Assembly: GCA_031289315.1 (NCBI GenBank)
Contig: JAITPR010000032.1
Location: forward strand, 7,866-71,865
Length of the DNA: 64,000 nucleotides
Reading direction: 5' to 3'
DNA from: Clostridiaceae bacterium
GTDB taxonomy: Bacteria; Bacillota; Clostridia; Christensenellales; CAG-917
The translations under genes and the position numbers were made by a program. Below, in pieces: positions 1,133 through 61,465 of this stretch. The first letter of the stretch is position 1. Every line of letters begins with the position of its first letter. The notes beneath the pieces are model-generated. The model was given only the letters and a program-made list of their open reading frames with translations. It searched no databases and was not told where the DNA came from.

Positions 1133-1972
1133 TTAGACGAACGCCCACCAAACTATTTTGGGATAATCGGGCAGAGGGAAGGAGGTTATTATCAGTCGAC
1201 TCCTGTCCTCTCCGTACGGTTTATTTTCGATTTTTACATGCCCCGCAAAACGTTCCGTATAGGAAATTTTAACGGTATCGCTACTTTTTTCTATCGTTAT
1301 ATCAGAGTTAACTTTGGATTGTTCTATTTCGGCGACGCCGTAATATATTACAGTCACGGGAACCGGAAGCACAGAAAACCCGTATGATTCGCGTAAGTCG
1401 CGTGTTTCATTGAGCCATGTCGTATGCGATAGACCGTTAAAAGCCAGCGACAAGGCAAACAGCACTAGAGTGCAAATAAGAAAGACGCGAAGAGGTTTTT
1501 TAAGAAATTTTTCGCAAGCGGCGGATTCCGCGACGGCGTAGGGCTTAGCGGGTATCAGCGCGGCGAAAAAAGCCATTGCCGCCACCGTAAGGAATAGCGC
1601 GGCAAAGGCGAATATCACTAAGAATAGCAGAAGAGAATTCGCGTATGTGGCGACCGTTATTGCATATATCACGGCAAGTAGTGAGGCAAGCGCGGCAAGC
1701 GCGGACAGAGAAAGTAAGGCTACGGCGATTATTTTGCGTGCGGATAGTGAAAGCGGAGTAGGGCGTTTGAACGCGCGGAACTTAGTTTCTCCGCTTGCAG
1801 TTGCCTGTTCTGAAGTCACCGTGCCGAAAATGTCGCTTGCGGTCGGTTCGTCGCCCCGTCCGCTTTGTGAAGGGCGTACGGGAAGCTTTCCAGTGTCGCA
1901 AGCGGGTTGAGCGGCATTTTGAGAAAATAATGCCTTAAATGATACAATAGACTGTTTTACAAAGGTTTTCAT
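1133..1972 (-). CDS. Hypothetical membrane protein (3-4 TM helices, C-terminal extracytoplasmic domain)
   Basis: 279-aa ORF with long hydrophobic stretches (IIAVALLSLSALAALASLLAVIYAI, LLLFLVIFAFAALFLTVAAMAFFAALI, VFLICTLVLFALSLAF); no family recognised. Confidence 0.55.
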   Translation of the reverse strand: MKTFVKQSIVSFKALFSQNAAQPACDTGKLPVRPSQSGRGDEPTASDIFGTVTSEQATASGETKFRAFKRPTPLSLSARKIIAVALLSLSALAALASLLAVIYAITVATYANSLLLFLVIFAFAALFLTVAAMAFFAALIPAKPYAVAESAACEKFLKKPLRVFLICTLVLFALSLAFNGLSHTTWLNETRDLRESYGFSVLPVPVTVIYYGVAEIEQSKVNSDITIEKSSDTVKISYTERFAGHVKIENKPYGEDRSRLIITSFPLPDYPKIVWWAFV

Positions 1973-3172: not shown

Positions 3173-3257
3173 GCGGAGCCGCAGACGGAAGAAAGAATGA
3201 TAGGCGGATATGCCGCATAATACGGAACAAAAAACAATAGTCGAATACGGATTGCAT

Positions 3258-3308
3258 GGGGAGGATTTCCCCCTCGTGTCACCCTGAGCGGAGTGCGGCG
3301 CGCCGCAC
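3258..3308 (+). repeat. Copy of dispersed motif family 2 (GGGAGG-ATTTCCCCC-TCGTGTCACCCTGAGCGGAG + GC palindrome)
   Basis: ggggaggatttccccctcgtgtcaccctgagcggagtgcggcgcgccgcac; related modules at 4547, 12482-12812, 17812, 29682-29794. Confidence 0.6.
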
Positions 3309-4284: not shown

Positions 4285-4343
4285 CTTAATAATAAAATAA
4301 ATTAAGCAATAAATAAATTAATAACATATTAAGTTATATATTT

Positions 4344-4388
4344 CCCCGTTGCTGTCCCTCCGATAAGGGACAGCAACGGGGAATTTTC
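4344..4388 (+). terminator. Rho-independent-type terminator hairpin after SSB-like gene
   Basis: ccccgttgctgtccct-ccgataa-gggacagcaacgggg (15-16 bp stem) followed by aattttc. Confidence 0.55.
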
Positions 4389-4459
4389 TAATGCGGTCTG
4401 ACAGCATGGGGCGCATTAATTCCGTGCAGATTTGTCATCCTAAACGAAGTTATATTCCG

Positions 4460-4528
4460 GGTGTGGACAATTCGCGGTGACACAATATTTTTTGGGAAGG
4501 CAAGTCTTAACCGCTGATTGTCCACTCC
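4460..4528 (-). mobile_element. MITE-like palindromic element, standard 69-bp form (reverse polarity)
   Basis: ggtgtggacaattcgcggtgaca...ggcaagt...ccgctgattgtccactcc; perfect 10-bp flanking direct repeat ttatattccg (4450-4459 / 4529-4538). Confidence 0.75.
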
Positions 4529-4546
4529 TTATATTCCGTGCCGATT

Positions 4547-7155: not shown

Positions 7156-7752
7156 ATGCCGAACATGAAAAACAAACGAAGCTATAATTTTTACGCGCTG
7201 CTGTCGCGCATGCGGTATATCGAAAGATGGCCTCTAATGCGCAATACTCAAAAGGAAAACATACTGGAGCACAGCGCGGATGTGGCGATATTCGCACAAG
7301 CGTTGGCAATCATCGACAACGAGATTTTTGGCGGCGACGCGGATGTAAATTTAGCCGGTTCGCTGGCGCTTTACCACGACGTTTCGGAGGTGATAACGGG
7401 CGACCTTGCGACACCCGTCAAATACTTCAATACGGAAATCAAGAAGGCGTATAAGGATTTGGAGCGCGTTGCGGAGGACAAGCTTATGTCCATGCTGCCG
7501 CTGGCGCTTGCCAAACGTTATGAAAAGCTAATGCGTCCGGACGTCGGTATATACGAGTACAAGCTTGTGAAAGCGGCGGATAAAATATCGGCATACCTAA
7601 AGTGTGTTGACGAGTTAAGTGCCGGCAACAACGAGTTTTCGCTTGCGGCGGATAAGCTAAGGTCGCAGATAGCCGAATTGAAATGCCGTGAAGCCGACTA
7701 TTTTCTGGAAAACTTCACGGACGGATACGGCAAGCCGTTGGACACGCTGTAA
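7156..7752 (+). CDS. yfbR: 5'-deoxynucleotidase, YfbR-like HD-domain phosphohydrolase
   Basis: Co-linear with E. coli YfbR as I recall it: RMRYIERWPLMRN, ENILEHS, LYHDVSEVITGDLATPVKYFN, KAADKISAYLKCVDELSAGNNEF. Confidence 0.85.
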   Translation: MPNMKNKRSYNFYALLSRMRYIERWPLMRNTQKENILEHSADVAIFAQALAIIDNEIFGGDADVNLAGSLALYHDVSEVITGDLATPVKYFNTEIKKAYKDLERVAEDKLMSMLPLALAKRYEKLMRPDVGIYEYKLVKAADKISAYLKCVDELSAGNNEFSLAADKLRSQIAELKCREADYFLENFTDGYGKPLDTL

Positions 7753-7754
7753 AC

Positions 7755-7824
7755 GAGTTTGGACAATCGCGGTGACGACTTGCCTGCCAAGAAAATATTT
7801 TATCACTGCGAATTGTCTACACCA
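7755..7824 (+). mobile_element. MITE-like palindromic element, standard 70-bp form
   Basis: gagtttggacaatcgcggtgacga-cttgcctgccaag-aaaatatttt-atcactgcgaattgtctacacca; perfect 8-bp TSD ctgtaaac (7747-7754 / 7825-7832), the first copy holding the yfbR stop codon. Confidence 0.8.
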
Positions 7825-7864
7825 CTGTAAACAACAAAAACGATTTTAAGACTACGGAGAAATA

Positions 7865-8921: not shown

Positions 8922-9413
8922 ATGATTATATTAGGCATAGACCCCGGGCTGGCTACTATCGGCTACGGAGTAATAAAATCGGAAAAGGGACAATTTACCG
9001 CTATAGACTGCGGCATAATCTCCACACCCGCAAAGATGTCCGTACCGGAACGGTTGAGCCTTATAGAAAAGGGAATTTTATCCGTCACGGAAAAATATTC
9101 GCCGGACGCGGCGGCAGTAGAGGAATTGTTCTTTACCAAAAACATAACCACGGGCATAACCGTGGCGGAGGCGCGCGGAGTTATTTTGCTTACGCTTTTA
9201 AAAAGCTGTAAGCAATTGTACGAGTACACCCCCAACGAAATTAAAAAAGCGGTTACCGGCTACGGCAGCGCGGACAAATTTCAGGTGCAACAGATGACGA
9301 CGGCGCTTCTGCGGCTTGCGGAGATACCCAAGCCCGACGATGCGGCGGATGCTCTTGCTATCGCGCTGTGCCATGCGCAAACGGGACGACTTTCCGGCGC
9401 ATTCAAAATGTAA
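8922..9413 (+). CDS. ruvC: Crossover junction endodeoxyribonuclease RuvC
   Basis: ILGIDPGLATIGYGVI, AVEELFF, PNEIKKAVTGYGSADK, DAADALAIALCH. Confidence 0.95.
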   Translation: MIILGIDPGLATIGYGVIKSEKGQFTAIDCGIISTPAKMSVPERLSLIEKGILSVTEKYSPDAAAVEELFFTKNITTGITVAEARGVILLTLLKSCKQLYEYTPNEIKKAVTGYGSADKFQVQQMTTALLRLAEIPKPDDAADALAIALCHAQTGRLSGAFKM

Positions 9414-9521
9414 TGGCGTGTAAAATTCACTGTGATGACTTGCCTGCTAAGGAAATCTTTTCGGCTCTTTTTGGTTTAAAATTGCCTAAAAATATTTTGT
9501 CACCGTGAATTGTCTACACCC
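9414..9521 (+). mobile_element. MITE-like element, long 108-bp variant
   Basis: Arms as in the family plus a ~37-bp internal expansion (tcttttcggctctttttggtttaaaattgcctaaaaa); 8-bp TSD aaatgtaa (9406-9413 / 9522-9529), the first copy containing the ruvC stop. Confidence 0.75.
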
Positions 9522-9546
9522 AAATGTAACAAGGAGCGGAATATAT

Positions 9547-10131
9547 ATGTACGCGTTTATAACGGGAACCGTAGCTGCGGTTGCCGAGGGACAAATCGTC
9601 CTTGAAAATAACGGAATAGGGTATGCCTTGCAGGTTTCCAACGGCACGGTTTTCGAGTGCGGCACAATAGGGAAAACCTTGCGGCTTTACACCTATCTTC
9701 AGGTAAAAGAGGACTTATTTTGTCTTTACGGCTTTGCGTCCGAAACGGAAAAAGACATGTTTTTGCGGCTTATAGGCATAAGCGGAATAGGACCTAAGGC
9801 GGCGCTTGCGGTGTTGTCCGGTTGCGACGTCAACACGCTTTCCGTGTGTATAGCGACGGGCGACGTGAAGACGCTTTCAAAGATAAAGGGCTTAGGCAAA
9901 AAGACTGCGGAACGGATAATTTTGGAGCTTAGAGAAAAGGTTGTCGACGACGGTTTGACGACGATGTTCGGCGAATCGGGAGCGAGCGGCGGAGCGGCGT
10001 CCGACGCGGTGAGCGCGCTTATTGCTTTGGGCGTGTCTAAAGCGGAGGCGGCGAAAGCCGTCGCGGAGGCGGCTAAGAAAACGGACAAGACGGACGAGCT
10101 TATAGCGCTTGCGCTGAAAAGACTAAGTTAA
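9547..10131 (+). CDS. ruvA: Holliday junction DNA helicase subunit RuvA
   Basis: ATG 9547 after AAGGAG; MYAFITGTV..., HhH motifs (ISGIGPKAALAVLS, IKGLGKKTAERIILEL), C-terminal domain III. Confidence 0.95.
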   Translation: MYAFITGTVAAVAEGQIVLENNGIGYALQVSNGTVFECGTIGKTLRLYTYLQVKEDLFCLYGFASETEKDMFLRLIGISGIGPKAALAVLSGCDVNTLSVCIATGDVKTLSKIKGLGKKTAERIILELREKVVDDGLTTMFGESGASGGAASDAVSALIALGVSKAEAAKAVAEAAKKTDKTDELIALALKRLS

Positions 10132-10245
10132 AAATTAGCACGCACGGATCGGCGCTTGCGCTGAAAAGACTAAATGTTAAAAATTAGCGCGTACGGACTA
10201 GCGCTTACTCTAGAAAAACCGCAAAATTAAAACACGCGGAACGGG
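10104..10245 (+). repeat. Tandem ~48-bp triplication of the ruvA 3' end (including stop codon)
   Basis: gcgcttgcgctgaaaagactaaGttaaaaattagcacgcacgga / gcgcttgcgctgaaaagactaaatgttaaaaattagcgcgtacgga / diverged third unit gcgcttactctagaaaaaccgcaaaattaaaacacgcgga. Confidence 0.75.
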
Positions 10246-10251
10246 ATAAAA

Positions 10252-11433
10252 ATGTTTGAAGACGACGAGAACAGACTGGTTACCGGCTTAAAGCTTTCGG
10301 ACGACGACGCGGAAAATACTCTGCGACCGAAAACGCTTGCCGAATACGTCGGACAGGAAAAGATAAAATCTAATCTGTCCGTATTTATAGCCGCGGCAAA
10401 AAACAGAGGAGAAGCACTTGACCACGTGTTACTTTCGGGTCCTCCGGGTTTGGGAAAGACGACGCTGGCGCACATAATAGCCAACGAACTGAATGCTCAA
10501 ATCCGCGTTACGTCGGGTCCGGCAATCGAACGCGCCGCCGACCTTGCCGCTATTTTGACAAACCTAAGCGACAACGATATACTTTTTATTGATGAAATCC
10601 ACCGTTTAAACCGCAATATTGAGGAAATTCTCTATCCGGCGATGGAGGATTTTGCCTTGGATTTTGTGATAGGAAAGGGTCCGGGCGCAAGAAGCGTCCG
10701 CCTTGCCATAAAGAAATTTACTTTGATTGGCGCAACCACGCGCGCCGGCATGCTTTCCTCTCCCTTGCGGGATCGTTTCGGGGTACTGTTCCGTTTGGAG
10801 ATATACCGCCCGGAGGAGCTTAAAGTGATAGTGCGGCGTTCGGCGGGGTTACTGGGCGTAAGCATAACCGACGACGCAGCTTTGGAAATTGCCTCTAGAA
10901 GCAGGGGGACGCCCCGTATTGCCAACCGATTGCTTAAGCGCGTACGCGATTTTTCGGAGGTTCAGGGCAAGACGTCGGTTAGCTTATTCGACGCGATGTC
11001 CGCGTTAGAAAAGATGGAAATCGACGCGTTGGGGTTGGACGTAATCGACCGCGTGTTACTGGAAACTATTATAAATAAGTTCAAGGGCGGTCCCGTGGGG
11101 CTTGACAATCTTGCGGCGGCAACGGGAGAGGAAGCCGCGACCATAGAGGACGTTTACGAGCCGTACCTAATGCAGTTGGGCTTTTTGGCGCGTACTCCGC
11201 GCGGACGCATAGCGCTTGCGGGCGCGTACGAACATTTAGGTTGTATGCCTCCGCCGGACGATAAGGCGCGTCAGCTGTCGATTTTCGAAAACAATTCCTT
11301 TAACGGCGACGTCAGCGGGGAAAGCGTCAACGGGGCAATCGGCGGAAACGGCAACAGTGATACCGGAAACGGAGCAACCGGAAACGGCGTTAACGGAAAA
11401 AACGGGGGCGGGAGCAATAACGGAAACCGATGA
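10252..11433 (+). CDS. ruvB: Holliday junction DNA helicase RuvB with ~50-aa Gly/Asn-rich C-terminal tail
   Basis: Walker [10 protein letters not shown], Walker [11 protein letters not shown], sensor [15 protein letters not shown], winged-helix region; tail [43 protein letters not shown]; stop overlaps the queA start (ATGA). Confidence 0.95.
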
Positions 11434-12467: not shown

Positions 12468-12530
12468 GCAAAGCCACCGGTGTCACCCATTGGGAGCGGG
12501 TTTTCCCCGTGTCACCCGGAATGTAACCGC

Positions 12531-12770
12531 CACGCCTTATGGGAGCGGGTTCGTTAGACCGTCACCTTATAGGAGCGGGTTCGTTAGACCGTCACCTTAT
12601 AGGAGCAGGTTCGTTAGACCGTCACCTTATGGGAGCGGGTTCGTTAGACCGTCACCTTATGGGAGCAGGTTCGTTAGACCGTCACCTTATGGGAGCGGGT
12701 TCGTTAGACCGTCACCTTATGGGAGCAGGTTCGTTAGACCGTCACCTTATAGGAGCGGGTTCTTTAGACT
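12531..12770. repeat. Tandem array: 8 head-to-tail copies of a 30-bp unit GTCACCTTATRGGAGCRGGTTCGTTAGACC
   Basis: Units start at 12531, 12561, 12591, 12621, 12651, 12681, 12711 and 12741. They differ only at two R positions, plus degenerate first and last units. Diverged related copies lie at 12482-12530. Confidence 0.95.
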
Positions 12771-12812
12771 GTCACCTTGAGCGGAGCGCGGCATGCCGCG
12801 CGAAGTCGAACT
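12771..12812 (+). repeat. Motif family 2 core abutting the tandem array
   Basis: gtcaccttgagcggagcgcggcatgccgcgcgaagtcgaactg; same core as 29687-29712, 17832-17846 and 3279-3296. Confidence 0.6.
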
Positions 12813-12959
12813 GAGCCGACAAATTGCGAAAGCAATTTAGGCACTTTTGAAGTGTAAACGGAAAAAGTGCAGATAGGCGAGGGAAAGGTCCCCCTAATAG
12901 GTGCTTACCCTTTTACGCTACGTTTCCATGCAACGCGCATAAAGATTTCTGCGTATTAG

Positions 12960-14750: not shown

Positions 14751-14847
14751 AAGTACGATAATAACGGGGCGGTATCGGTCGCCTTGAATTCTTTGGATAT
14801 ACCCGTGTTATACGGGTTATGCCGCCAATTTTTGAATACCGCCGACA

Positions 14848-14934
14848 AAGGTTTTAGGACGCATGTCTTAAGCCGGAGTTTACGGAAGATAAAGGTTCTA
14901 GGGCGCAGTCCTAAGCTAGAGTTTACGGCAGATA
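14848..14934 (+). repeat. 44-bp tandem direct repeat (2 good copies, a third diverged to about 14980)
   Basis: aaggttttaggacgcatgtcttaagccggagtttacggaagata / aaggttctagggcgcagtcctaagctagagtttacggcagata. Confidence 0.7.
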
Positions 14935-15107
14935 AGGGTACCGGCAGAGAAGTTTGGTAATCTAAGTTACGGTTTAGATGAAAAATTTTAACCTCGAATT
15001 ACTGTAGACAAGGGCGCGGATAATATTATCCGACACAAACCGCTTAAAAGCGGGTGTGCGGTTAATCCGTTAAAATTACATATGATAATAAGGCTTAAAA
15101 TTGCCCA

Positions 15108-15152
15108 AAGGCACCCTCCGTTGAATTTTTCGACGGAGGGTGCCCTTTTTTT
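15108..15152 (+). terminator. Strong rho-independent terminator
   Basis: ggcaccctccgt-tgaatttttcg-acggagggtgcc (12-bp perfect stem) followed by cttttttt. Confidence 0.8.
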
Positions 15153-15181
15153 GGGTGTGGACAATCTCTTTTTTGTCGCTA
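15153..15181. repeat. Internally deleted/truncated MITE remnant
   Basis: gggtgtggacaatctc + ttttttgtcgc matches the left arm and the start of the right arm; the rest is missing. Confidence 0.45.
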
Positions 15182-15678: not shown

Positions 15679-15734
15679 TTGCCGCACTTTACCTTGACAC
15701 CTCTAAGCGCCCATGCCAACACGCCCTATGACAT

Positions 15735-15804
15735 GTGTGTGGACAATCCTCTGTGACAACTTGCCGGTCAAGAAAATATTTTGTCATCGCGAATTGTCCA
15801 CGCC
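15735..15804 (+). mobile_element. MITE-like palindromic element, standard 70-bp form
   Basis: gtgtgtggacaatcctctgtgacaa-cttgccggtcaag-aaaatatttt-gtcatcgcgaattgtccacgcc; flanking repeat only imperfect (ccctatga / cccatga). Confidence 0.65.
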
Positions 15805-15814
15805 CATGATATGA

Positions 15815-16022: not shown

Positions 16023-16196
16023 ATGAAACATTTCACAAAAGTAGTCGTTTCTTCCATGAAAAAGGACGGTAAAATCGGTTGCGGAGAATGTCAATCGAGT
16101 TGCCAATCCGCTTGCAAAACAAGCTGTACGGTAGGCAATCAGTCTTGTGTCAACAAGGACGAAAAGATAATGGTCAAGGAAACCGGCAATAAATAA
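16023..16196 (+). CDS. scfA: SCIFF (six-cysteine) ranthipeptide precursor, 57 aa
   Basis: Absent from the ORF track (<60 aa). MKHFTKVVVSSMKKDGKIGCGECQSSCQSACKTSCTVGNQSCVNKDEKIMVKETGNK contains the hallmark GCGECQSSCQSACKTSCTVGNQ core; GGAGA RBS; sits directly upstream of the SPASM radical-SAM maturase. Confidence 0.92.
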   Translation: MKHFTKVVVSSMKKDGKIGCGECQSSCQSACKTSCTVGNQSCVNKDEKIMVKETGNK

Positions 16197-16282
16197 GACG
16201 GCAAATCCCTACACCGATAATTCTCACTCCGGATTTTCGTACCGCGAAACGCCGCTTTTGAGTGAATGACTTATAATGTCGG

Positions 16283-16389
16283 GGTGTATACAATCCTCGT
16301 TGACGACTTGCCGGCTAAGAAAATCTTTTCGGCTCTTTTAGATCTAAAACCGTCTGAAAATATTTTGTCACCGTGAATTGTCCATACCC
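16283..16389 (+). mobile_element. MITE-like element, long 107-bp variant, between scfA and scfB
   Basis: ggtgtatacaatcctcgttgacga-cttgccggctaag-aaaatcttttcggctcttttagatctaaaaccgtctgaaaatatttt-gtcaccgtgaattgtccataccc; 9-bp TSD with one mismatch, taaTgtcgg / taaCgtcgg. Confidence 0.75.
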
Positions 16390-16406
16390 TAACGTCGGAT
16401 AGCGCA

Positions 16407-17768: not shown

Positions 17769-17811
17769 GCGTAGTTGAAAAGGAAGGCGGACGGATAAGT
17801 TACCGCTAAAC

Positions 17812-17888
17812 GGGAGCGGATTTTCCCGACTGTCACCTTGAGCGCAGTCAAATTCCGCGTCCGTTGTCATGTTGAGCAAAGTCGAAAC
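17812..17888 (+). repeat. Motif family 2 copy (two GTCAYNTTGAGC cores)
   Basis: gggagcggattttcccgactgtcaccttgagcgcag ... gttgtcatgttgagcaaagtcgaaac. Confidence 0.55.
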
Positions 17889-23340: not shown

Positions 23341-23430
23341 ACTATGGGAGTGAAAAATCCCTAAACTATAATAAAAGAATACGCGCCGCAGATAAACGGT
23401 AAATGCTTGCAAAAAACGGAAGCGCGGCAA

Positions 23431-23545
23431 TCGAAAAACTACGAAAAAAAAGTACTTACAAGGAAAGTAACTCCTTAAAAAAAGTATCGAAAAAACTACG
23501 AAAAAAAAGTACTTATATATAAGATAACTCCTTAAAATAAGTATC
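23431..23545. repeat. 56-bp tandem direct repeat (2 copies), A-rich
   Basis: tcgaaaaactacgaaaaaaaagtacttacaaggaaagtaactccttaaaaaaagta / tcgaaaaaactacgaaaaaaaagtacttatatataagataactccttaaaataagta. Confidence 0.8.
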
Positions 23546-23620
23546 AAAAAAGTATCAAAGAATACGGCGGAAGCCGGAAATTACGTACAAGGGCGACCGA
23601 GGTCGGGAGGGAACACGGCT

Positions 23621-25765: not shown

Positions 25766-25818
25766 AATTTTTTTCGGCGTCGAAAAAAAACAAACAATAT
25801 TTTTTCTAGAGTAGTGTT

Positions 25819-25920
25819 TCGGAACGGTTGAGATACCGCAACGTGGTCAAAAAAATAAAAAAAAATTTTCGAAGGCAGTACGTCGGAACGGTTAAGATAC
25901 CGCCATGTAGTCGAAAAAAA
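25819..25920. repeat. 64-bp-period direct repeat pair in relA-MBL spacer
   Basis: tcggaacggttGagataccgcAaCgtGgtcAaaaaaa versus tcggaacggttAagataccgcCaTgtAgtcGaaaaaaa; weaker similarity to the relA 3' end (ccgtgagataatcg). Confidence 0.7.
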
Positions 25921-28220: not shown

Positions 28221-29555
28221 ATGAAGAAAAGAAAGCTTTTTATCACCACGGCTATTCTAGCGCTCGTACTTATATTGGCGTTGGCTTTGACGGCTTGTAC
28301 GGGAGGAGAGGTAACCGGAGAAATAACCAATTCCGAGGACTGGAATAAGGCGTTAGATGCTACCGTCGCCGCGCTTACAGCGGCGGAGCCGAACTATTCG
28401 ATGACCATGGAAATGGTGGAAGACGGTTACATAGTTGGCGTGGACATTAAGGTTGCCGGCAAGTCGGCTTCCGGGCTTATGACGGAAACCTCCGGCGGCA
28501 AGGAAACAATTTCAGAAAAGTTTATAGTTATAGGCGGCGAGACCAAAAACGACGGCTATACATGGGACGAAGACGTGCAAAAATGGGAGTATGAGGAACT
28601 GTCCGAAATCGAAGCCGACGAAATGCTAGATTCGGTGAACGGTGACTTGTACGGTTATACTGAGTTCTTTGACCTTATTAAGGATAGATACGAATTTTTC
28701 GATTATAGCGTTGAGAGAGCCGAATATGTTATCAACTTAGAAAGAGTTCGTGCTTCCCAAGAAGACAGTGAGGATTTTGAGGATGTACCCGAAGACGCGG
28801 ACATGTCAATATCCTTTAGAAATGGTAAGGTAACGAAAATTGCACTCTCTTCAGATTCGGAAAGAGCAGGTGTCGCTATTTATTTTACATTTGGCGGAAT
28901 TACCGTGCAAGCACCCGCGGATAAGGACGTAATATATCCTACCGAAAATAAAAAGGGCGATGCCTTGGCAAATTCGGCGGCATGGAACGCCGCGATTAAC
29001 GCGACAAGAGCGGAAATCAACGCAGAAGACGGAAACTATTCGTTGGTAATGAGTATGACGGCGAGTGGACCGGTTTCCATTGACGCGGAAATTCGGGTTG
29101 ACGGTAATTCCTATTACGGATACGCAAAAACCGTTTATGCCAGTACGGTTGCCGAAGATAAATTTATGATTATCGACAACGAAGACGGAACCTTTGACGT
29201 CTATTTATGGGATTTCGATCAGGAAAAGTGGTTATATTCCACAATTGATGAGGACGATGAGTTCTTTGACGAAGACCCTTTGGCAAACATAGCCATCGCG
29301 TATGAATCATTATGTGATGCCATGCTAAATAAATACAGCTCATTTGATTTTGACCCGGAAACCGGCGCTTATGTAGTCAAACCCGGCAGTGCGGCTGCAA
29401 CAGTCGGCACCGGCGGACATGCGGAGCTTTATTTTAAAAACGGAAGGCTTATCGAATTGTCCATGGATGGCTCCGGGTCAATAGTATTTATGGAGTTCGG
29501 GTTCGGAGATATTGAAATAACCGCTCCCGACGCAGAGGATGTAATATCGGCGTAA
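28221..29555 (+). CDS. Lipoprotein of unknown function made of two homologous ~200-aa halves
   Basis: Signal peptide plus lipobox (LALALTAC). Both halves start W-N-x-A-(L/I)-x-A-T and end F-x-FG-x-I-x-(V/I)-x-AP-x-x-(K/E)-DVI. Confidence 0.7.
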   Translation: MKKRKLFITTAILALVLILALALTACTGGEVTGEITNSEDWNKALDATVAALTAAEPNYSMTMEMVEDGYIVGVDIKVAGKSASGLMTETSGGKETISEKFIVIGGETKNDGYTWDEDVQKWEYEELSEIEADEMLDSVNGDLYGYTEFFDLIKDRYEFFDYSVERAEYVINLERVRASQEDSEDFEDVPEDADMSISFRNGKVTKIALSSDSERAGVAIYFTFGGITVQAPADKDVIYPTENKKGDALANSAAWNAAINATRAEINAEDGNYSLVMSMTASGPVSIDAEIRVDGNSYYGYAKTVYASTVAEDKFMIIDNEDGTFDVYLWDFDQEKWLYSTIDEDDEFFDEDPLANIAIAYESLCDAMLNKYSSFDFDPETGAYVVKPGSAAATVGTGGHAELYFKNGRLIELSMDGSGSIVFMEFGFGDIEITAPDAEDVISA

Positions 29556-29657: not shown

Positions 29658-29681
29658 TATGGTGGGGTGTAGTGTTTCTTT

Positions 29682-29738
29682 CACGTGTCACCTTGAGCGG
29701 GGCGCGGCATGCCGCGCCCCGCTCAAGGTGACAACGTG
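29682..29738. repeat. 57-bp near-perfect palindrome built from motif family 2
   Basis: cacgtgtcaccttgagcggggcgcggcat|gccgcgccccgctcaaggtgacaacgtg; a third inverted module (gcgctcagggtgacacgaagggaacccc) lies at 29767-29794. Confidence 0.9.
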
Positions 29739-29873
29739 TGCTGAGTTCGATTATGCACAAGGTGTAGCGCTCAGGGTGACACGAAGGGAACCCCGCCGGC
29801 ACGTTGCTCTCGTCGTAAAACTCTGCAAAAAGTCTTATTCTAGCAAAAATTTGGCGCCCCACGTTTAAAACGG

Positions 29874-30278: not shown

Positions 30279-30312
30279 AAAAGAGGCGGCATTAGTTTGC
30301 GCCTCTTTTTTT
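30279..30312 (+). terminator. rpsO terminator/attenuator hairpin before pnp
   Basis: aaaaagaggcg-gcattagtttg-cgcctcttttttt. Confidence 0.75.
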
Positions 30313-30436
30313 GGAGTTTTCGCTTATTTTCGGCACAAAACGCGCTTAGTCGCGTAGGCTCACTTAAGTTTAGGTTACAATAAAATAAACGATATATGAT
30401 AGGAGCGAGAGGTTCGCTCCGACTCGGGAGAAAAAA

Positions 30437-32536: not shown

Positions 32537-32628
32537 TGTAAGAGTATAGTTTGCGCTTGTTCTTTCTTGCACGCGCAAGAAAGAACCAAAGAAGCGCGCA
32601 AGCTTGAAGCTTGACACTGATTACTTGA

Positions 32629-32677
32629 AAAACGCGGTTGACGCAGGATTATATCCTTAGCGTCAACCGCGTTTTTA
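32629..32677. terminator. Bidirectional-looking terminator hairpin downstream of pnp
   Basis: aaaaacgcggttgacgc-aggattatatccttag-cgtcaaccgcgttttt; A-tract 5' and T-tract 3'. Confidence 0.65.
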
Positions 32678-32925
32678 AATTTATTAGTTTTAATCTCCCC
32701 TCTTATCGTCTTTTATTTTCTCCATGTCCCATTCCTACAACACGCATTTTTAAATCTATTCAGTGTTAATCCCCTCGCTTATCGTCCTTTACTTTCTCTA
32801 TGTCCCATTCCTACAACACGCGTTTTTAAATCTATTCAGTGTTAATCCCCTCGCTTATTGTTCTTTATTTCTTTATATCCTCTTACCAAAAACACATTCT
32901 TAAATTTATTAGTGTTAACGCAACT
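32672..32925. repeat. ~75-bp tandem repeat, about 3.4 copies
   Basis: Units begin tttttaaat at 32672, 32747 and 32823, with a partial unit at 32898. Units 2 and 3 are nearly identical over the first ~40 nt (tttttaaatctattcagtgttaatcccctcgcttat). Confidence 0.85.
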
Positions 32926-37961: not shown

Positions 37962-38140
37962 AAATTACCATCCCGTACACAACAATTTTCCGTTAGTACG
38001 TATATATTATAAACTATAAGCCCTATAAGTTCAATAGTAAAATTAAATTTTTTGTAGATTAAGTATTTACTTATTCGCATATATAATGTAAAATGTTTTT
38101 AGAAACCCTAAAAGCCTTTACGGGCAAGGAGAAACACCGT

Positions 38141-39826
38141 ATGAAATTTAAAAATAACCGCTTGCGATTGATATTATTGTTTCTGACGTTGGTGTCCGCC
38201 GCAGTTTTATTTGCCGCGTGCAACGAAGAACCGCCCGCCGCCGAACCCGTCGCAAAATATATAGTTTTACAGTTTACGGACGGCTCTCAAAAAACAATTT
38301 ACGGATATGAGGAGTTCTTCCATTCCTCCGCAACTCCGGAAGCCGGCTATGATTTTGTAGGTTGGTATTTCACCGTAAGCGATAAAATCGGCTTTACCGA
38401 TGCGGACGATTATCTGCTTTCGCAAGAATACGCATACAACCAAAACAACATATCGCTATTTTTTAATTTTATAGCCGACTCGCCCGCATGGATTCTTTTA
38501 AACATGTTTCCGCGTTTTATTAAGGTGGATAGCGTTCCGTTTACAGCGGGAGAGGAAATATATCTGGGGCTTTCGCGGCACGCGGCGTTGTATCTTCCAA
38601 CCATGCATGATGCATACGCCGATAGGTTCTACAGAATAGACATATCGACTTATTTTATGCCGCCCCATAGCGAAGAAATCGTCTTTGACTTATATATAAA
38701 CGGAAAATCCGTTGAATACTCACCTGAAAAGGTATATTTTATTGAAGGGCTTCCCGCATATTTCAAAATAATTCCGACGACGGACGGTAAAGAAATTTAT
38801 TCCGCGCCGCTTTCGATAAAGTTAACTCCGGTTGGGCATGAAGAGGGCTTCGATTTAAACTTAATGGGGCTTCCGTCCGGCGTTCGGGATGATAACGGAT
38901 ATTACAATAGCCGTTACTTCACCTTCCCGGTCGACATTAAAACGGAGGGCTTCTACAGCTTTTCATTTGCTGCAGAGGGTGTCGCCACGCAAACCGCCTC
39001 CGTTAGCCTTGATAATTATTCGTGGTCGTCCGATATTCACTACTACGGTTATTATTACGGAGAAAACCGTAATGCTTTGTCTGCCGAGGGCGACACAGGT
39101 GTAATTGCCTACTGTATAGAAGGAATTTATAACGTTAAGGTTAACGCAATAGGCATAACGGATGCCGGCGCAACACACAAAGGACACTTGACGATAGAAA
39201 AATATACACCCGATGAGATTAAAAGCGGCGACAAGATAACATTTACCGATAATAACGCTGTCATACGCATGTTTACGCCTATCGAAGGCGGTCGGTTGTT
39301 TAGTCGCTTACTAGATGCGGAAGGCAACAAAGAAAGTGCGTCAATCCGTATTTACGATGCGACGATGAGGTATTCCGCGCTGATGGTAACTTATCCGGAC
39401 TTAGGCGCGGAGATGTATTTGGAGGCGGGCAAAACCTACGCTTTAATTTTATCTCCACCCTTTACGGGAGCCTTAGGCGAATACACTTTTTCCGTTTACA
39501 AAGACACGGTATTTGGAGATGGGGGAGAATGGTATGTAAGCGGATTACGCATATACGACTACTATGTCGTTCTTCCGCGCGGCGACCTATCAAAATCCTA
39601 TTCCGAACGGGTACACATCGAGTTTAGGCATCCGAACGGAGTAATCGACTATTATGAAGAGGTCACTCACACACAATCACCTCCGACATTCACCTTCGAA
39701 AACTCTCCTTTGGGCGGTACATACCTTATTTATTATAATTATTTGACGCCCACGCAACGAGTGATTTATGCGAAGCCAAGCGGTTCCTTGCAATACAACT
39801 ACTGTTTAACGGTGTATGTCGTTTAG
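38141..39826 (+). CDS. Lipoprotein of unknown function with one Listeria-Bacteroides (Flg_new-type) repeat
   Basis: ATG 38141 after AAGGAG; lipobox LFAAC; PEAGYDFVGWYF matches the repeat motif as I recall it; divergent from the GH38 gene. Confidence 0.6.
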   Translation: MKFKNNRLRLILLFLTLVSAAVLFAACNEEPPAAEPVAKYIVLQFTDGSQKTIYGYEEFFHSSATPEAGYDFVGWYFTVSDKIGFTDADDYLLSQEYAYNQNNISLFFNFIADSPAWILLNMFPRFIKVDSVPFTAGEEIYLGLSRHAALYLPTMHDAYADRFYRIDISTYFMPPHSEEIVFDLYINGKSVEYSPEKVYFIEGLPAYFKIIPTTDGKEIYSAPLSIKLTPVGHEEGFDLNLMGLPSGVRDDNGYYNSRYFTFPVDIKTEGFYSFSFAAEGVATQTASVSLDNYSWSSDIHYYGYYYGENRNALSAEGDTGVIAYCIEGIYNVKVNAIGITDAGATHKGHLTIEKYTPDEIKSGDKITFTDNNAVIRMFTPIEGGRLFSRLLDAEGNKESASIRIYDATMRYSALMVTYPDLGAEMYLEAGKTYALILSPPFTGALGEYTFSVYKDTVFGDGGEWYVSGLRIYDYYVVLPRGDLSKSYSERVHIEFRHPNGVIDYYEEVTHTQSPPTFTFENSPLGGTYLIYYNYLTPTQRVIYAKPSGSLQYNYCLTVYVV

Positions 39827-39900: not shown

Positions 39901-39955
39901 CGGTGCGGACAATTCGCAGTGACAAAATATTTTGTCACGGCTGATTGTTCGCACC
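39901..39955. mobile_element. MITE-like element, minimal symmetric 55-bp variant
   Basis: cggtgcggacaattcgcagtgac-aaaatatttt-gtcacggctgattgttcgcacc; lacks the CTTGCC..GGCAAG module; ends 2 nt from the hisIE stop codon. Confidence 0.6.
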
Positions 39956-39956
39956 A

Positions 39957-41430: not shown

Positions 41431-41462
41431 GTATTCTCCGTCGCGGAACCTTTATATATTCC

Positions 41463-41533
41463 GGGTGTGGACAATCCATGGTGACAACTTGCTAGGCAAG
41501 AAAACATTTTACCACCGCGAATTGTCCACGTCC
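41463..41533 (+). mobile_element. MITE-like palindromic element, standard 71-bp form, between hisA and hisF
   Basis: gggtgtggacaatccatggtgacaa-cttgctaggcaag-aaaacatttt-accaccgcgaattgtccacgtcc; imperfect flanking repeat atattccg / atattaccg. Confidence 0.65.
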
Positions 41534-41650
41534 ATATTACCGCGTCCACGTTTGTCCGTATAACTGCTATTGATACCGTTGCCGCCGATTGTAAGGAATG
41601 GCATGGTTGCGCGTCCGCGTTTGTTCACACCAATAAGATATCAACGGCGT

Positions 41651-43662: not shown

Positions 43663-43759
43663 AGCTGTACACTCCTTTTTTGTTGCTCACGGTAAGGTTC
43701 CTAAATGCCGAAACAAAACCGTAAGTCTTTTTTACTTGCTCAAATTAATTCTTTAACGG

Positions 43760-43855
43760 GTGTGGACACTCCGTGGTGACAAAATATTTTTAGACTAAAA
43801 AGAACCGAGAAGATTTTCTTGGCAGGCAAGTCGTCAACGAGGATTGTCCATGCCC
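43760..43855 (-). mobile_element. MITE-like element, long 96-bp variant (reverse polarity), overlapping the hisC 3' end
   Basis: gtgtggacactccgtggtgacaaaatattttt...cttggcaggcaagtcgtcaacgaggattgtccatgccc; perfect 10-bp TSD tctttaacgg (43750-43759 / 43856-43865); 43834-43855 encode GMDNPR plus the stop of hisC. Confidence 0.8.
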
Positions 43856-44901
43856 TCTTTAACGGTCTGAATGAGAGTTTTCATGTCCTTTTTCGAGCCT
43901 ATAGTGATGCGGACAAAGCCGCGTAGCCGTTCTTTGTCGAAATAACGCACCAAAACGCCACGCGCCTTTAATTCCTCATACAGTCGCTTGCCGTCCTTAT
44001 CCGCGTGTCCGGCAAAAATAAAATTCGCCTTTGACGGAAGCACCGTGAAGCCTAACTTTTTTAATTCCTCAACCGTAAATTCCCGCACCCGTATAATTTC
44101 CGCAACGCATTTACCGAAGTATTCGGTGTCCTCTATTGCGGCTTTACCGGCAAGCGCGGTAAGACGGTTGACGTTGTAGGGGTTGAAAGAATATTTTATT
44201 TTCTTTAAATCCGCTATGATTTCCTCTGACGCCGCGCAAAACCCCAACCGTGCGCCGGCAAGCGAACGCGACTTTGAAAACGTTTGCACCACAATGAGGT
44301 TTTCGTACTTCTTCAAAAGCGGAATTGCGCTTTCGCCGCCGAAGTCTATGTACGCCTCGTCGACTATAACCAACCGTCCCGCGTTTTTCTCCGCCAACCG
44401 TTCTATGTCGGTTAAGCTTAAACAAATGCCAGTAGGCGCGTTAGGGTTGGCTATCACAACGTGCTTCCCGCGTCCTAAGTATTCGTCGACATCCACGGTG
44501 TAGTCTTCCTTCAACGGGACGGAACACGGCGGTTCGCCTATGAGCGCGGAAAAAACCGGATAAAATCCGTAGGAAATCTCCGGATATATCATGCCATTTT
44601 CCTTGTCCGAAAACGCGGTATATATAAAAGCTAAGATCTCGTCGGAGCCGTTGCCGCAAAGCACCTGCGCTTCACTTATGCCGTAGTAGTCCGCAATCGC
44701 GCGCGTCAAAGCCCGTGCCTCCGGGTCAGAATAAAGCCGTAGCTTCTTCACCTCCGCGGCACTAAGCGCCTTTACGACGGCGGGCGACGGCGGAAACGGC
44801 GATTCGTTTGTATTCAGCTTTACGTAGCGCATATCCTGCGGCTGTTCACCGGGAATATACGGCTCTAAAGCCTTGTATTTTTTTATTAGATATCTGCTCA
44901 T
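43834..44901 (-). CDS. hisC: Histidinol-phosphate aminotransferase
   Basis: KLNTNESP, GNGSDE, NPNAPTG, VIVDEAY, QTFSKSRSLAGARLG (PLP Lys); the last 6 codons and stop come from the MITE arm. Confidence 0.92.
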   Translation of the reverse strand: MSRYLIKKYKALEPYIPGEQPQDMRYVKLNTNESPFPPSPAVVKALSAAEVKKLRLYSDPEARALTRAIADYYGISEAQVLCGNGSDEILAFIYTAFSDKENGMIYPEISYGFYPVFSALIGEPPCSVPLKEDYTVDVDEYLGRGKHVVIANPNAPTGICLSLTDIERLAEKNAGRLVIVDEAYIDFGGESAIPLLKKYENLIVVQTFSKSRSLAGARLGFCAASEEIIADLKKIKYSFNPYNVNRLTALAGKAAIEDTEYFGKCVAEIIRVREFTVEELKKLGFTVLPSKANFIFAGHADKDGKRLYEELKARGVLVRYFDKERLRGFVRITIGSKKDMKTLIQTVKEGMDNPR

Positions 44902-60238: not shown

Positions 60239-60263
60239 GCGTGGACAATTTTGCCGCACCCGT
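60239..60263. repeat. Collapsed MITE (left terminus abutting right terminus)
   Basis: gcgtggacaat|tttgccgcacccg compared with the intact copy gtggacaat...gagttgtccgcaccc at 61362-61432. Confidence 0.45.
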
Positions 60264-60323: not shown

Positions 60324-61307
60324 TCAGTCCTTTTCTCTCAACCAAACCGCCAATTCCTTAGCGTGATAGGTTATCAGTATGTCCGCACCCGCACGGAACG
60401 CGGCAAGCGCACTCTCCGTCACCGTACGTCTTTCATCAATGTATCCGCGTTCCGCCGCCGCCTTTATCATAGCGTATTCACCGCTAACGCTGTACGCCGC
60501 AAGCGGAAGCAAGGTGTTTTTTCTTATTTCCGCAAGCACATCTAAATAAAACATCGCCGGCTTCACCATGAGTATGTCCGCCCCCTCCCGTTCATCCGTC
60601 AAGGCTTCGCGCAAGGCCTCACGCTTGTTCGCCGGGTTTATCTGATAGCCGCACCTATCCCCGAACGACGGTGCGGACGCCGCCGCTTCGCGAAAGGGCG
60701 CGTACAGAGCGGACGCAAACTTCGCCGAATACGCCATAATAGCCACGGAGGAAAAACCGTTTCCGTCCAAAATCTCCCGTATCGCCGCAACCTGAAAATC
60801 CGCCATTGCCGACGGCGCAACTACGTCCGCACCCGCTTCTGCGTGACTTAGCGCGGTTTTTTGTAGCAGTCGCAAAGTCTTATCGTTGTCAACCACCCCG
60901 TTTACAAGCGCGCCGCAATGACCGTGCGAGGTATATTCGCACAGACAAACGTCGGTTATAACGGTGAATTCGCCCATGCCTTTAAGCTTTTTCACGGCGG
61001 TCTGAACTATGCCGTCCTTTGCGTAAGCGCCGCTACCCGTCTTATCCTTTTCGGTGGGCAAACCAAAAAGCAATACGTTTTTGACACCCGCGTTCCGTAA
61101 TTCTTCGGCGGCGCGGTCCAGCGTATCTATGCCGTATCTATACTGCCCGGGCATAGACGGAATTTCCTCAAAAACGCCCTTTCCCTCTTTTATAAACAAC
61201 GGATACACCAAAGCTGACTTTTTTATTTCAGTTTCGTTTACTAAACATCTTATTTGAGGGTTTGCACGCAAGCGTCTTAATCGCGTTTGTGTTTCCATAA
61301 TTTGCAT
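60324..61307 (-). CDS. hemB: Porphobilinogen synthase (delta-aminolevulinic acid dehydratase)
   Basis: RLRRLR, LVYPLF, DVCLCEYTSHGHCG (Zn Cys site), PSAMADFQV, SAKFASALYAPFR, ADILMVKPA, YSVSGEYAM. Confidence 0.96.
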   Translation of the reverse strand: MQIMETQTRLRRLRANPQIRCLVNETEIKKSALVYPLFIKEGKGVFEEIPSMPGQYRYGIDTLDRAAEELRNAGVKNVLLFGLPTEKDKTGSGAYAKDGIVQTAVKKLKGMGEFTVITDVCLCEYTSHGHCGALVNGVVDNDKTLRLLQKTALSHAEAGADVVAPSAMADFQVAAIREILDGNGFSSVAIMAYSAKFASALYAPFREAAASAPSFGDRCGYQINPANKREALREALTDEREGADILMVKPAMFYLDVLAEIRKNTLLPLAAYSVSGEYAMIKAAAERGYIDERRTVTESALAAFRAGADILITYHAKELAVWLREKD

Positions 61308-61361
61308 CCTTTAACGATTTCATTCACCTGTACGGGAACGGAGCGTATTTTATTACCCTTC

Positions 61362-61432
61362 GGGTGTGGACAATCCGTGACGACAACTTGCTACTCAAGA
61401 AAATATTTTATCACCGCGAGTTGTCCGCACCC
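61362..61432 (+). mobile_element. MITE-like palindromic element, standard 71-bp form, between cobA-hemD and hemB
   Basis: gggtgtggacaatccgtgacgacaa-cttgctactcaag-aaaatatttt-atcaccgcgagttgtccgcaccc; imperfect flanking repeat cccttcgg / cctttcgg. Confidence 0.7.
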
Positions 61433-61465
61433 GCCTTTCGGCACTTAATATCATTTTTAAACAAG

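Follow-up and report, generated by a model that had tools for sequence, protein, structure and literature searches.

The stretch analyzed here, 64,000 nucleotides of genomic DNA from a Clostridiaceae bacterium (GenBank assembly GCA_031289315.1, contig JAITPR010000032.1, positions 7,866 to 71,865; hereafter, the window), raises the question of how a palindromic element of about 70 bp, present for example at positions 7747 to 7832, came to lie in many copies among housekeeping genes. An earlier reading made from the letters alone (the sequence-only reading) took the element for a MITE (miniature inverted-repeat transposable element) that had moved by non-autonomous transposition, rather than for the product of REP-like evolution in place. 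MITEs are noncoding internal-deletion derivatives of insertion sequences (IS) and are moved in trans by the transposase of the corresponding IS. Our analysis upholds this core claim: with a probability of about 0.9, the copies belong to a non-autonomous MITE family that spread by trans mobilization within the lineage and now persists as neutrally decaying relics. Target-site duplications of 8 bp, found above chance, carry this assignment, which is further backed by imperfect and asymmetric arms, modular size variants, exclusion from coding sequence, and absence from syntenic relatives.

A modular family of ten dispersed copies

An nhmmer search of the window, using a profile built from the element's own aligned copies, returned exactly ten full-length copies (2084-2154, 4459-4529, 7755-7824, 9414-9521, 15735-15805, 16282-16389, 39901-39956, 41463-41533, 43758-43855, and 61362-61432), within 1 to 2 nt of the ten positions given by the sequence-only reading. 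The same family was recovered independently as sets of direct and inverted repeats in a repeat search of the window, and the right-arm 23-mer (GTCACCGCGAATTGTCCACACCC), allowed up to 3 mismatches, matched nine times against zero expected from 100 dinucleotide-preserving shuffles. The copies range from about 55 to 108 nt and have no coding capacity of their own, in line with the size of about 50 to 800 bp by which MITEs are defined (PMC11602168, PMC6382973). They are also dispersed and multiple, as expected of a MITE, with 10 copies and 3 remnants in 64 kb and both orientations present: the 4459 and 43758 copies clearly run in reverse, and for the 39901 copy the minus strand scores slightly better.

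Short, long, and minimal forms fit one modular alignment, which comprises a left arm (GGGTGTGGACAATCCGCGGTGAC, 23 nt), a module A (RACTTGCCNGCYAAG, 15 nt; the CTTGCC module), an optional module B of 27 to 37 nt that begins AAAATCTTTTCGGCTCTTTT, a core (AAAATATTTT), and the right arm of 23 nt. The element is bounded by GGGTGTGGACAAT...ATTGTCCACACCC, and its ends read GGGTGTGG, with GGG termini. The terminal inverted repeats (consensus GGGTGTGGACAATYCGCGGTGAC) are imperfect; with 23-nt arms and 80% of their positions paired, they fall in the range typical of MITEs (at least 10 to 15 bp). Six copies are of the short form (70 to 71 nt), three are of the long form that includes module B (108, 108, and 98 nt), and one is a minimal 56-nt form without module A. 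The direct repeats AAAATCTTTT and AAAATATTTT flank module B, so that one deletion between them would suffice to make the short form out of the long one, and conversion plausibly ran in that direction. At arm position 14, the left arm usually carries C and the complement of the right arm T, such that this position pairs in only 3 of 9 copies; the shared asymmetry indicates descent from a putative master copy with imperfect inverted repeats. Four of the six reading frames are open in the consensus as read by eye.

Three remnants listed by the sequence-only reading also proved genuine, though short, and retain exact end sequences of 12 to 14 nt. At 31-56 (no strand assigned) lie two partial right-arm-like pieces (GGATTGTCAACAC and ATTGTCCACGCCC), the terminal 13 nt of which exactly repeat the right end of the 15735 copy. 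The second remnant, at 15153-15181 on the plus strand, is a left end on its own (GGGTGTGGACAATC), directly after the yajC intrinsic terminator (15110-15144), with an exact 13- to 14-nt left end at 15153-15166. The third, at 60239-60263 (no strand assigned), consists of collapsed left and right ends (GCGTGGACAAT..TTGCCGCACCC) downstream of the stop codon of hemB (60324-61307, minus strand). Two Logan contigs of SRR14710897, L001 and L005, agree with the window at 100% identity and add 2.4 kb beyond its left edge; the left half of a degenerate long-form copy lies in this extension, at L005 8189-8250. Gene callers placed no open reading frame (ORF) across copies in either contig. L001 and L005 both end inside the 7755 copy (window positions 7772-7800) and overlap there by 29 nt, and since two contigs of one sample end within this repeat, we attribute a short-read assembly break to it.

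Target-site duplications, insertion placement, and syntenic relatives

The flanks of the ten copies were compared in a single register, each end being set 8 nt outside the ACAAT/ATTGT block, which, like the AAAATATTTT block, is invariant across copies. In this register the focal interval 7747-7832 resolves into a left duplication (7747-7754, CTGTAAAC), a short-form element on the plus strand (7755-7824), and a perfect right duplication (7825-7832); it lies between the yfbR-like and ABC ATPase genes, and its left duplication holds the TAA stop of the yfbR-like gene. Identical flanking 8-mers (8/8) were found at three more copies: the reversed short form on the minus strand at 4451-4537 (element, 4459-4529; TATATTCC), between the ssb terminator (4342-4383) and a gene with an AP-endonuclease fold; the 108-nt long form on the plus strand at 9406-9529 (element, 9414-9521; AAATGTAA), between ruvC, whose stop codon closes the left duplication, and the ruvA ribosome-binding site; and the reversed 98-nt long form on the minus strand at 43750-43863 (element, 43758-43855; TCTTTAAC), which carries an internal deletion of 10 nt. 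A fifth copy, the 108-nt long form on the plus strand between scfA (16023-16196) and scfB, matches at 7/8 in exact register (16274-16397; element, 16282-16389; TAATGTCG / TAACGTCG). Two further plus-strand short forms reach 7/8 after a 1-base shift of one boundary. One spans 2076-2161 (element, 2084-2153; TGTAAGAG at 2076-2083 and CGTAAGAG at 2154-2161) in the divergent promoter region between a 279-amino-acid (aa) ORF (1133-1972, minus strand) and pdaB; the other spans 15728-15813 (element, 15736-15805; ATGACATG / ATGATATG) between a TIGR04086 membrane-protein gene and scfA.

A duplication is thus recognizable in 7 of 10 copies (four at 8/8, three at 7/8). At random sites with the same spacing, the probability of a match of at least 7/8 is 0.0006 in exact register and 0.0058 with a slop of ±1 nt, and seven duplications among ten copies is far beyond chance. 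Flanking direct repeats are thus commoner than at random sites, and the claim of flanking repeats made by the sequence-only reading stood, although they number seven rather than six. The variable duplications of 7 to 10 bp in that reading did not survive: once all ends share one register, the length is a uniform 8 bp, within the 2 to 10 bp of fixed-length duplication by which MITEs are recognized, and the 9- to 10-bp readings are a chance effect of a G at the end of the flank, next to the initial GGG of the element. Likewise, GTAA occurs in three of six duplications, not in four. The duplications are 70% A+T, versus 51% for the window. Two of the insertions used the 8-mer TATATTCC, which adjoins opposite arms in the 4459 and 41463 copies, and its repeated use suggests a target preference, as judged from these flanks.

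Each of the ten insertions falls either between genes or within the final three codons of one (under random placement, P would be about 1e-9) in a window that is ~86% coding and whose intergenic share is 12.7% once the elements are removed. This placement reflects purifying selection on insertions. The window is a chromosomal housekeeping stretch of Clostridia, with pdaB, ssb, pgi, ruvCAB, queA, tgt, yajC, the SCIFF genes scfA and scfB, secDF, recJ, relA, rpsO, pnp, the his operon, serS, leuS, a glycyl-radical enzyme gene, and hem genes, and six copies lie between cotranscribed genes. The neighbors named by the sequence-only reading were all correct (ruvC|ruvA, scfA|scfB, hisF|hisA, hisB|hisC, and hemD-fusion|hemB). 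The 43758 copy went into hisC three codons ahead of its stop and now supplies the final seven codons and the stop codon: the tail reads ...TVKEGMDNPR (stop) in place of the original ...TVKELI (stop), the last two residues having been replaced (43834-43863). In silico excision of this copy together with one duplication restores an in-frame stop three codons later (...TVKELI).

The lineage is isolated, since a search of 5.8 billion proteins found no RuvB closer than 73% identity. Striking synteny was seen in three lineage representatives (RuvB, 72 to 73% identical), L006 and L007/L008/L009, among them two NCBI "Clostridia bacterium" metagenome-assembled genomes (MAGs). They share a gene order that starts with AP-endonuclease fold, pgi, yfbR-like, and ABC ATPase, continues through ruvC, ruvA, ruvB, queA, and tgt, and ends with yajC, (DUF3792), scfA, scfB, secD, secF, recJ, and relA. 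No copy of the element was present at any syntenic site in these distant relatives. The gap between the yfbR-like and ABC ATPase genes measures 112 nt in the window and 34 nt with the element and one duplication removed, compared with 2 nt in L006 and overlapping genes in L007; the gap between ruvC and ruvA measures 133 nt in the window and 17 nt after the same removal, compared with 75 nt in L006 and 15 nt in L007. These lengths are compatible with excision and match the empty-site pattern sought by the sequence-only reading, though across a wide evolutionary distance.

Mechanism, decay, and rival explanations

The duplications and ends are consistent with the following scheme. A transposase, probably of the DDE type, would have bound the ~23-nt inverted repeats (GGGTGTGGACAATYCGCGGTGAC) and cut an AT-rich target with an 8-nt stagger, with gap repair leaving the 8-bp duplications. 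The family would have spread among the ancestors of this uncultured Clostridia lineage once they had split from the nearest sampled relatives, and only insertions between genes or at the very 3′ ends of genes would have survived. The 71-nt form may have arisen from the 108-nt form by deletion between the AAAATCTTTT and AAAATATTTT repeats, the 56-nt form may reflect loss of the CTTGCC module, and the copies would then have decayed neutrally. Duplications of 8 bp are produced by several DDE IS families, including IS1595, ISL3, IS256, IS6, and IS66.

As the sequence-only reading had stated, the copies are non-autonomous, with no transposase in any window ORF scanned. Three ORFs had no Pfam match (1133-1972, minus strand, 279 aa; 28221-29555, plus strand, 444 aa; and 38093-39826, plus strand, 577 aa), and the 279- and 577-aa ORFs had no NCBIfam match either. 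All three are single copy and are not bounded by element ends; two of them adjoin MITE copies. Outside the window, a degenerate 24-nt pattern of right arm plus core, which matches 7 of the 10 window copies, had no match in 185,579 species genomes (one genome per species). Its three matches in JGI metagenomes and one in IMG/VR were rejected as unrelated coding sequence or chance, with no partner arm. A pattern of the ends alone returned no match in viral contigs and six matches in unrelated high-GC MAGs, rejected for want of a partner arm, and a two-arm gapped pattern gave one actinophage-like match in viral contigs whose inner arms are not complementary. A blastn search with the long form against plasmid and phage collections yielded only chance matches of 20 to 24 nt, and a literature text search for the end sequences returned unrelated primers only. 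The autonomous partner may have been lost or may be located elsewhere.

The copies are 82 to 91% identical to the consensus and 77% identical pairwise. Within copies, 80.3% of arm cells are paired, versus 81.1% when right arms are shuffled among the 10 copies, and compensatory double changes are no commoner than in the shuffles; the two arms of one copy therefore decay independently. Consensus G/C positions have diverged by 17.6% and A/T positions by 7.7% (Fisher P = 1e-4), and C>T plus G>A account for 40 of 90 changes. The apparent conservation of the A/T-only core and of the ACAAT block is explained by this mutational bias from G/C to A/T. The orientation of the copies relative to transcription is unbiased (5 sense, 3 antisense). 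Neutral decay of relics is indicated by the lack of covariation, the G/C-to-A/T bias, and the lack of orientation bias, and the copies accordingly look like old, neutrally decaying sequences rather than selected RNA or DNA structures.

Every copy nonetheless folds into an imperfect long hairpin (−22 to −35 kcal/mol; z-scores, −2.3 to −8.9). A terminator scan flagged none of the copies as intrinsic terminators, and a U-tract is absent from 9 of 10. The sole terminator-like copy is the minimal 56-nt form at 39901-39956 (no strand assigned), which consists of two arms plus AAAATATTTT, forms the hairpin of greatest stability (−34.7 kcal/mol), has a T-rich tail after it (TTATTTTAGCTTTT), and sits between convergent genes. 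In addition, a weak sigma-70-like motif (TGGACA, 16 nt, TATTTT; 9 of 12 matches) is present in the right arm of eight copies, reading inward. The promoter scan placed it, for example, at 4464-4491 and 43763-43790 on the plus strand and at 7819-7792, 9516-9489, 15800-15773, 16384-16357, and 41534-41506 on the minus strand. It faces the next gene in four copies (the 279-aa ORF, the AP-endonuclease-fold gene, hisF, and hemB) and faces against the adjacent operon in five. The motif could be a relic of the parental transposase promoter or a source of spurious transcription.

These hairpins and motifs are what three other explanations have to work with. That the family arose as a MITE and that some or all copies were then co-opted, as operon-internal hairpins for mRNA processing or stability or as weak promoters, is unlikely but has several features in its favor: all copies form hairpins, six lie between cotranscribed genes, four of the right-arm motifs are aimed at the downstream gene, the 39901 copy has its T-rich tract, and precedents exist in ERIC, which affects mRNA stability, and Correia, which is processed by RNase III (PMC2229807). 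However, the arms show no covariation, orientation is unbiased, substitutions track mutational bias rather than structure, the promoter match is weak and often opposes the operon, and the operons of the relatives do without the element. The same absence of covariation and of orientation bias, together with the nine copies that lack a U-tract and substitutions that resemble neutral decay, leaves unsupported the functions that the sequence-only reading had proposed for the hairpins (attenuation, recruitment of RNases, or stabilization of mRNA). The copies of today would instead be passive hairpins cotranscribed in operons, with any regulatory effect incidental, putative, and unproven.

Much less credible is a family of structured noncoding RNAs or palindromic operator sites kept by selection. 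The strong hairpins and the invariant ACAAT/ATTGT and AAAATATTTT blocks would fit such sites, but the invariant positions are almost all A/T and are accounted for by G/C-to-A/T decay, and a selected RNA structure was rejected for the lack of compensatory pairs in the arms. Moreover, both orientations are found, many copies lie at gene 3′ ends rather than at promoters, and duplications have no reason to flank a binding site or an RNA gene. Rfam returned no match in the window at the gathering threshold, its sole match at an E value of ≤1 being unrelated (30279-30339). Least probable of all are REP/BIME-like palindromes, spread by RAYT (a Y1, IS200/IS605-like transposase) or evolved in place. 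The elements share with them a palindromic, intergenic, and abundant character, and no DDE transposase lies nearby; yet REPs measure 20 to 40 nt, with GTAG/CGTC heads and no target duplication (PMC3733652), whereas the elements here measure 55 to 108 nt, with GGG ends and 8-bp duplications. No RAYT-like ORF was found among the window ORFs.

Four observations weigh against assignment to an old, decaying MITE family. Three copies lack a clean duplication: the 39901 copy has no recognizable one; the plus-strand short form at 41455-41541 (element, 41463-41533), between hisA and hisF, has a degraded one (TATATTCC / ATATTACC), the left 8-mer of which equals the duplication of the 4459 copy; and the plus-strand short form at 61354-61440 (element, 61362-61432), between a hemD/methylase fusion gene and hemB, has flanks that are weakly alike (TACCCTTC / GCCTTTCG). 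No autonomous IS with matching ends was found in the window, the 185,579 species genomes, JGI metagenomes, IMG/VR, plasmids, or phages. The nearest comparable sites are in genomes at 72 to 73% RuvB identity, and the organism's other assemblies are 100% identical and come from one sample. Finally, the AAAATATTTT core diverges by 3%, versus 12 to 17% in the arms; mutation bias toward A/T accounts for the difference, but some constraint on the core may also be at work.

Comparison with known families and other features of the window

Several known families resemble the MITE family described here. Correia/NEMIS elements of Neisseria are likewise small, noncoding, abundant, and cotranscribed in operons, with ~24-bp inverted repeats; they also fall into two size classes, of about 107 and 155 bp (PMC2229807), set apart by an internal block, much like the 71- and 108-nt forms here, and have open frames, such that ORF tails can enter the element, as in hisC here. 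In contrast, Correia elements have a TA duplication, TA termini, and an IHF site, whereas the family in this uncultured Clostridia lineage has 8-bp duplications and GGG termini and shares no sequence with them. RUP of pneumococcus is also a Firmicute MITE, of about 107 bp, with around a hundred intergenic copies mobilized in trans (PMC2229807). Its parent is IS630-Spn1, its targets are TA, it has stops in all frames, and its copies are highly similar, reflecting recent activity; the family here has no known parent, 8-bp duplications, four of six frames open, and old, diverged copies. MITEAba12 of Acinetobacter is similarly short (113 bp); its inverted repeats are likewise imperfect, and its long duplication of constant length (9 bp) points to a DDE IS parent (PMC6382973). 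Unlike the dense family here, which is about 13% diverged from its consensus and matches no IS, MITEAba12 is active, low in copy number, barely diverged, and matched to the ends of ISAba12. ERIC/IRU elements of enterobacteria share imperfect palindromes, location in transcribed intergenic regions, old copies, and size variants, and are documented to affect mRNA stability in a way that depends on orientation (PMC2229807). By analogy, ERIC could serve as a model for what the copies here could do; it differs in its 127-bp length, short inverted repeats, and TA termini and has no sequence relationship. Membership in Correia, RUP, or ERIC was rejected, given 8-bp duplications and GGGTGTGG ends in place of TA termini and a TA duplication.

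On this comparison, the elements appear to be a new, apparently lineage-restricted, and inactive fossil MITE family of a well-known kind. Their density is 156 copies per Mb, or 1.24% of the DNA, a figure for 64 kb only that is not to be extrapolated genome-wide. The highest total MITE load in a census of 183,232 genomes is that of Wolbachia, at 123.4 per Mb and 1.23% (PMC11602168); the single-family density here equals or exceeds that total, for a window of 64 kb rather than a genome. We regard it as doubtful that the copies represent the footprint of an undescribed IS or transposase lineage with a record single-family load, if the window is typical, and with some copies possibly co-opted as promoters or RNA-processing sites within operons. 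If the density holds genome-wide, this would be among the heaviest single-family MITE loads known in bacteria and a natural experiment on long hairpins tolerated in essential operons (ruvCAB, his, hem, and SCIFF). A parent IS, if found, would tie an 8-bp-duplication transposase to these ends. The family is selfish DNA of an ordinary kind, and its interest comes from its density, its tolerance in essential operons, and its missing parent. It would give a poorly sampled lineage an annotated repeat family and explains assembly breaks, inflated intergenic spacers, and at least one altered C terminus (hisC).

Another repeat family, in which a GC-rich hairpin (GCGCGGCATGCCGCGC) usually comes after the core TGTCACCTTGAGCGG, forms a 30-bp array of about 8 to 10 tandem units between queA and tgt (12475-12834; TRF, 12535-12778), within which the other end of L001 falls. 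Related units lie at 3256-3308, 4547, 17809-17847, and 29668-29780; single units occur downstream of pdaB, scfB, and the 444-aa ORF, and one contains a perfect 46-nt palindrome (29687-29732). This second family has no Rfam match, and GTCACC is the sole sequence that it has in common with the MITE arms. The intergenic spacers are also unusually rich in tandem duplications (10103-10206, 14847-14939, 23430-23551, 25778-25905, and 32664-32918). Their units include 47 to 49 nt in two copies (ruvA|ruvB), 43 nt in two, 57 nt in two (recJ|relA), 64 nt in two (after relA), and, after pnp and adjoining an inverted repeat (32608-32696), 76 nt in 3.4.

T-box leaders are common upstream of genes such as serS, leuS, and the his operon in Firmicutes; despite the presence of all three, no T-box leader was detectable in the window with Rfam, and the window has no tRNA gene. 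RuvB (10252-11433) is 393 aa long, versus about 345 to 360 aa in relatives, and the family profile stops near residue 331, which leaves about 60 aa as a C-terminal extension. The SCIFF precursor (16023-16196) has a tail of ~15 residues beyond its conserved Cys-rich core.

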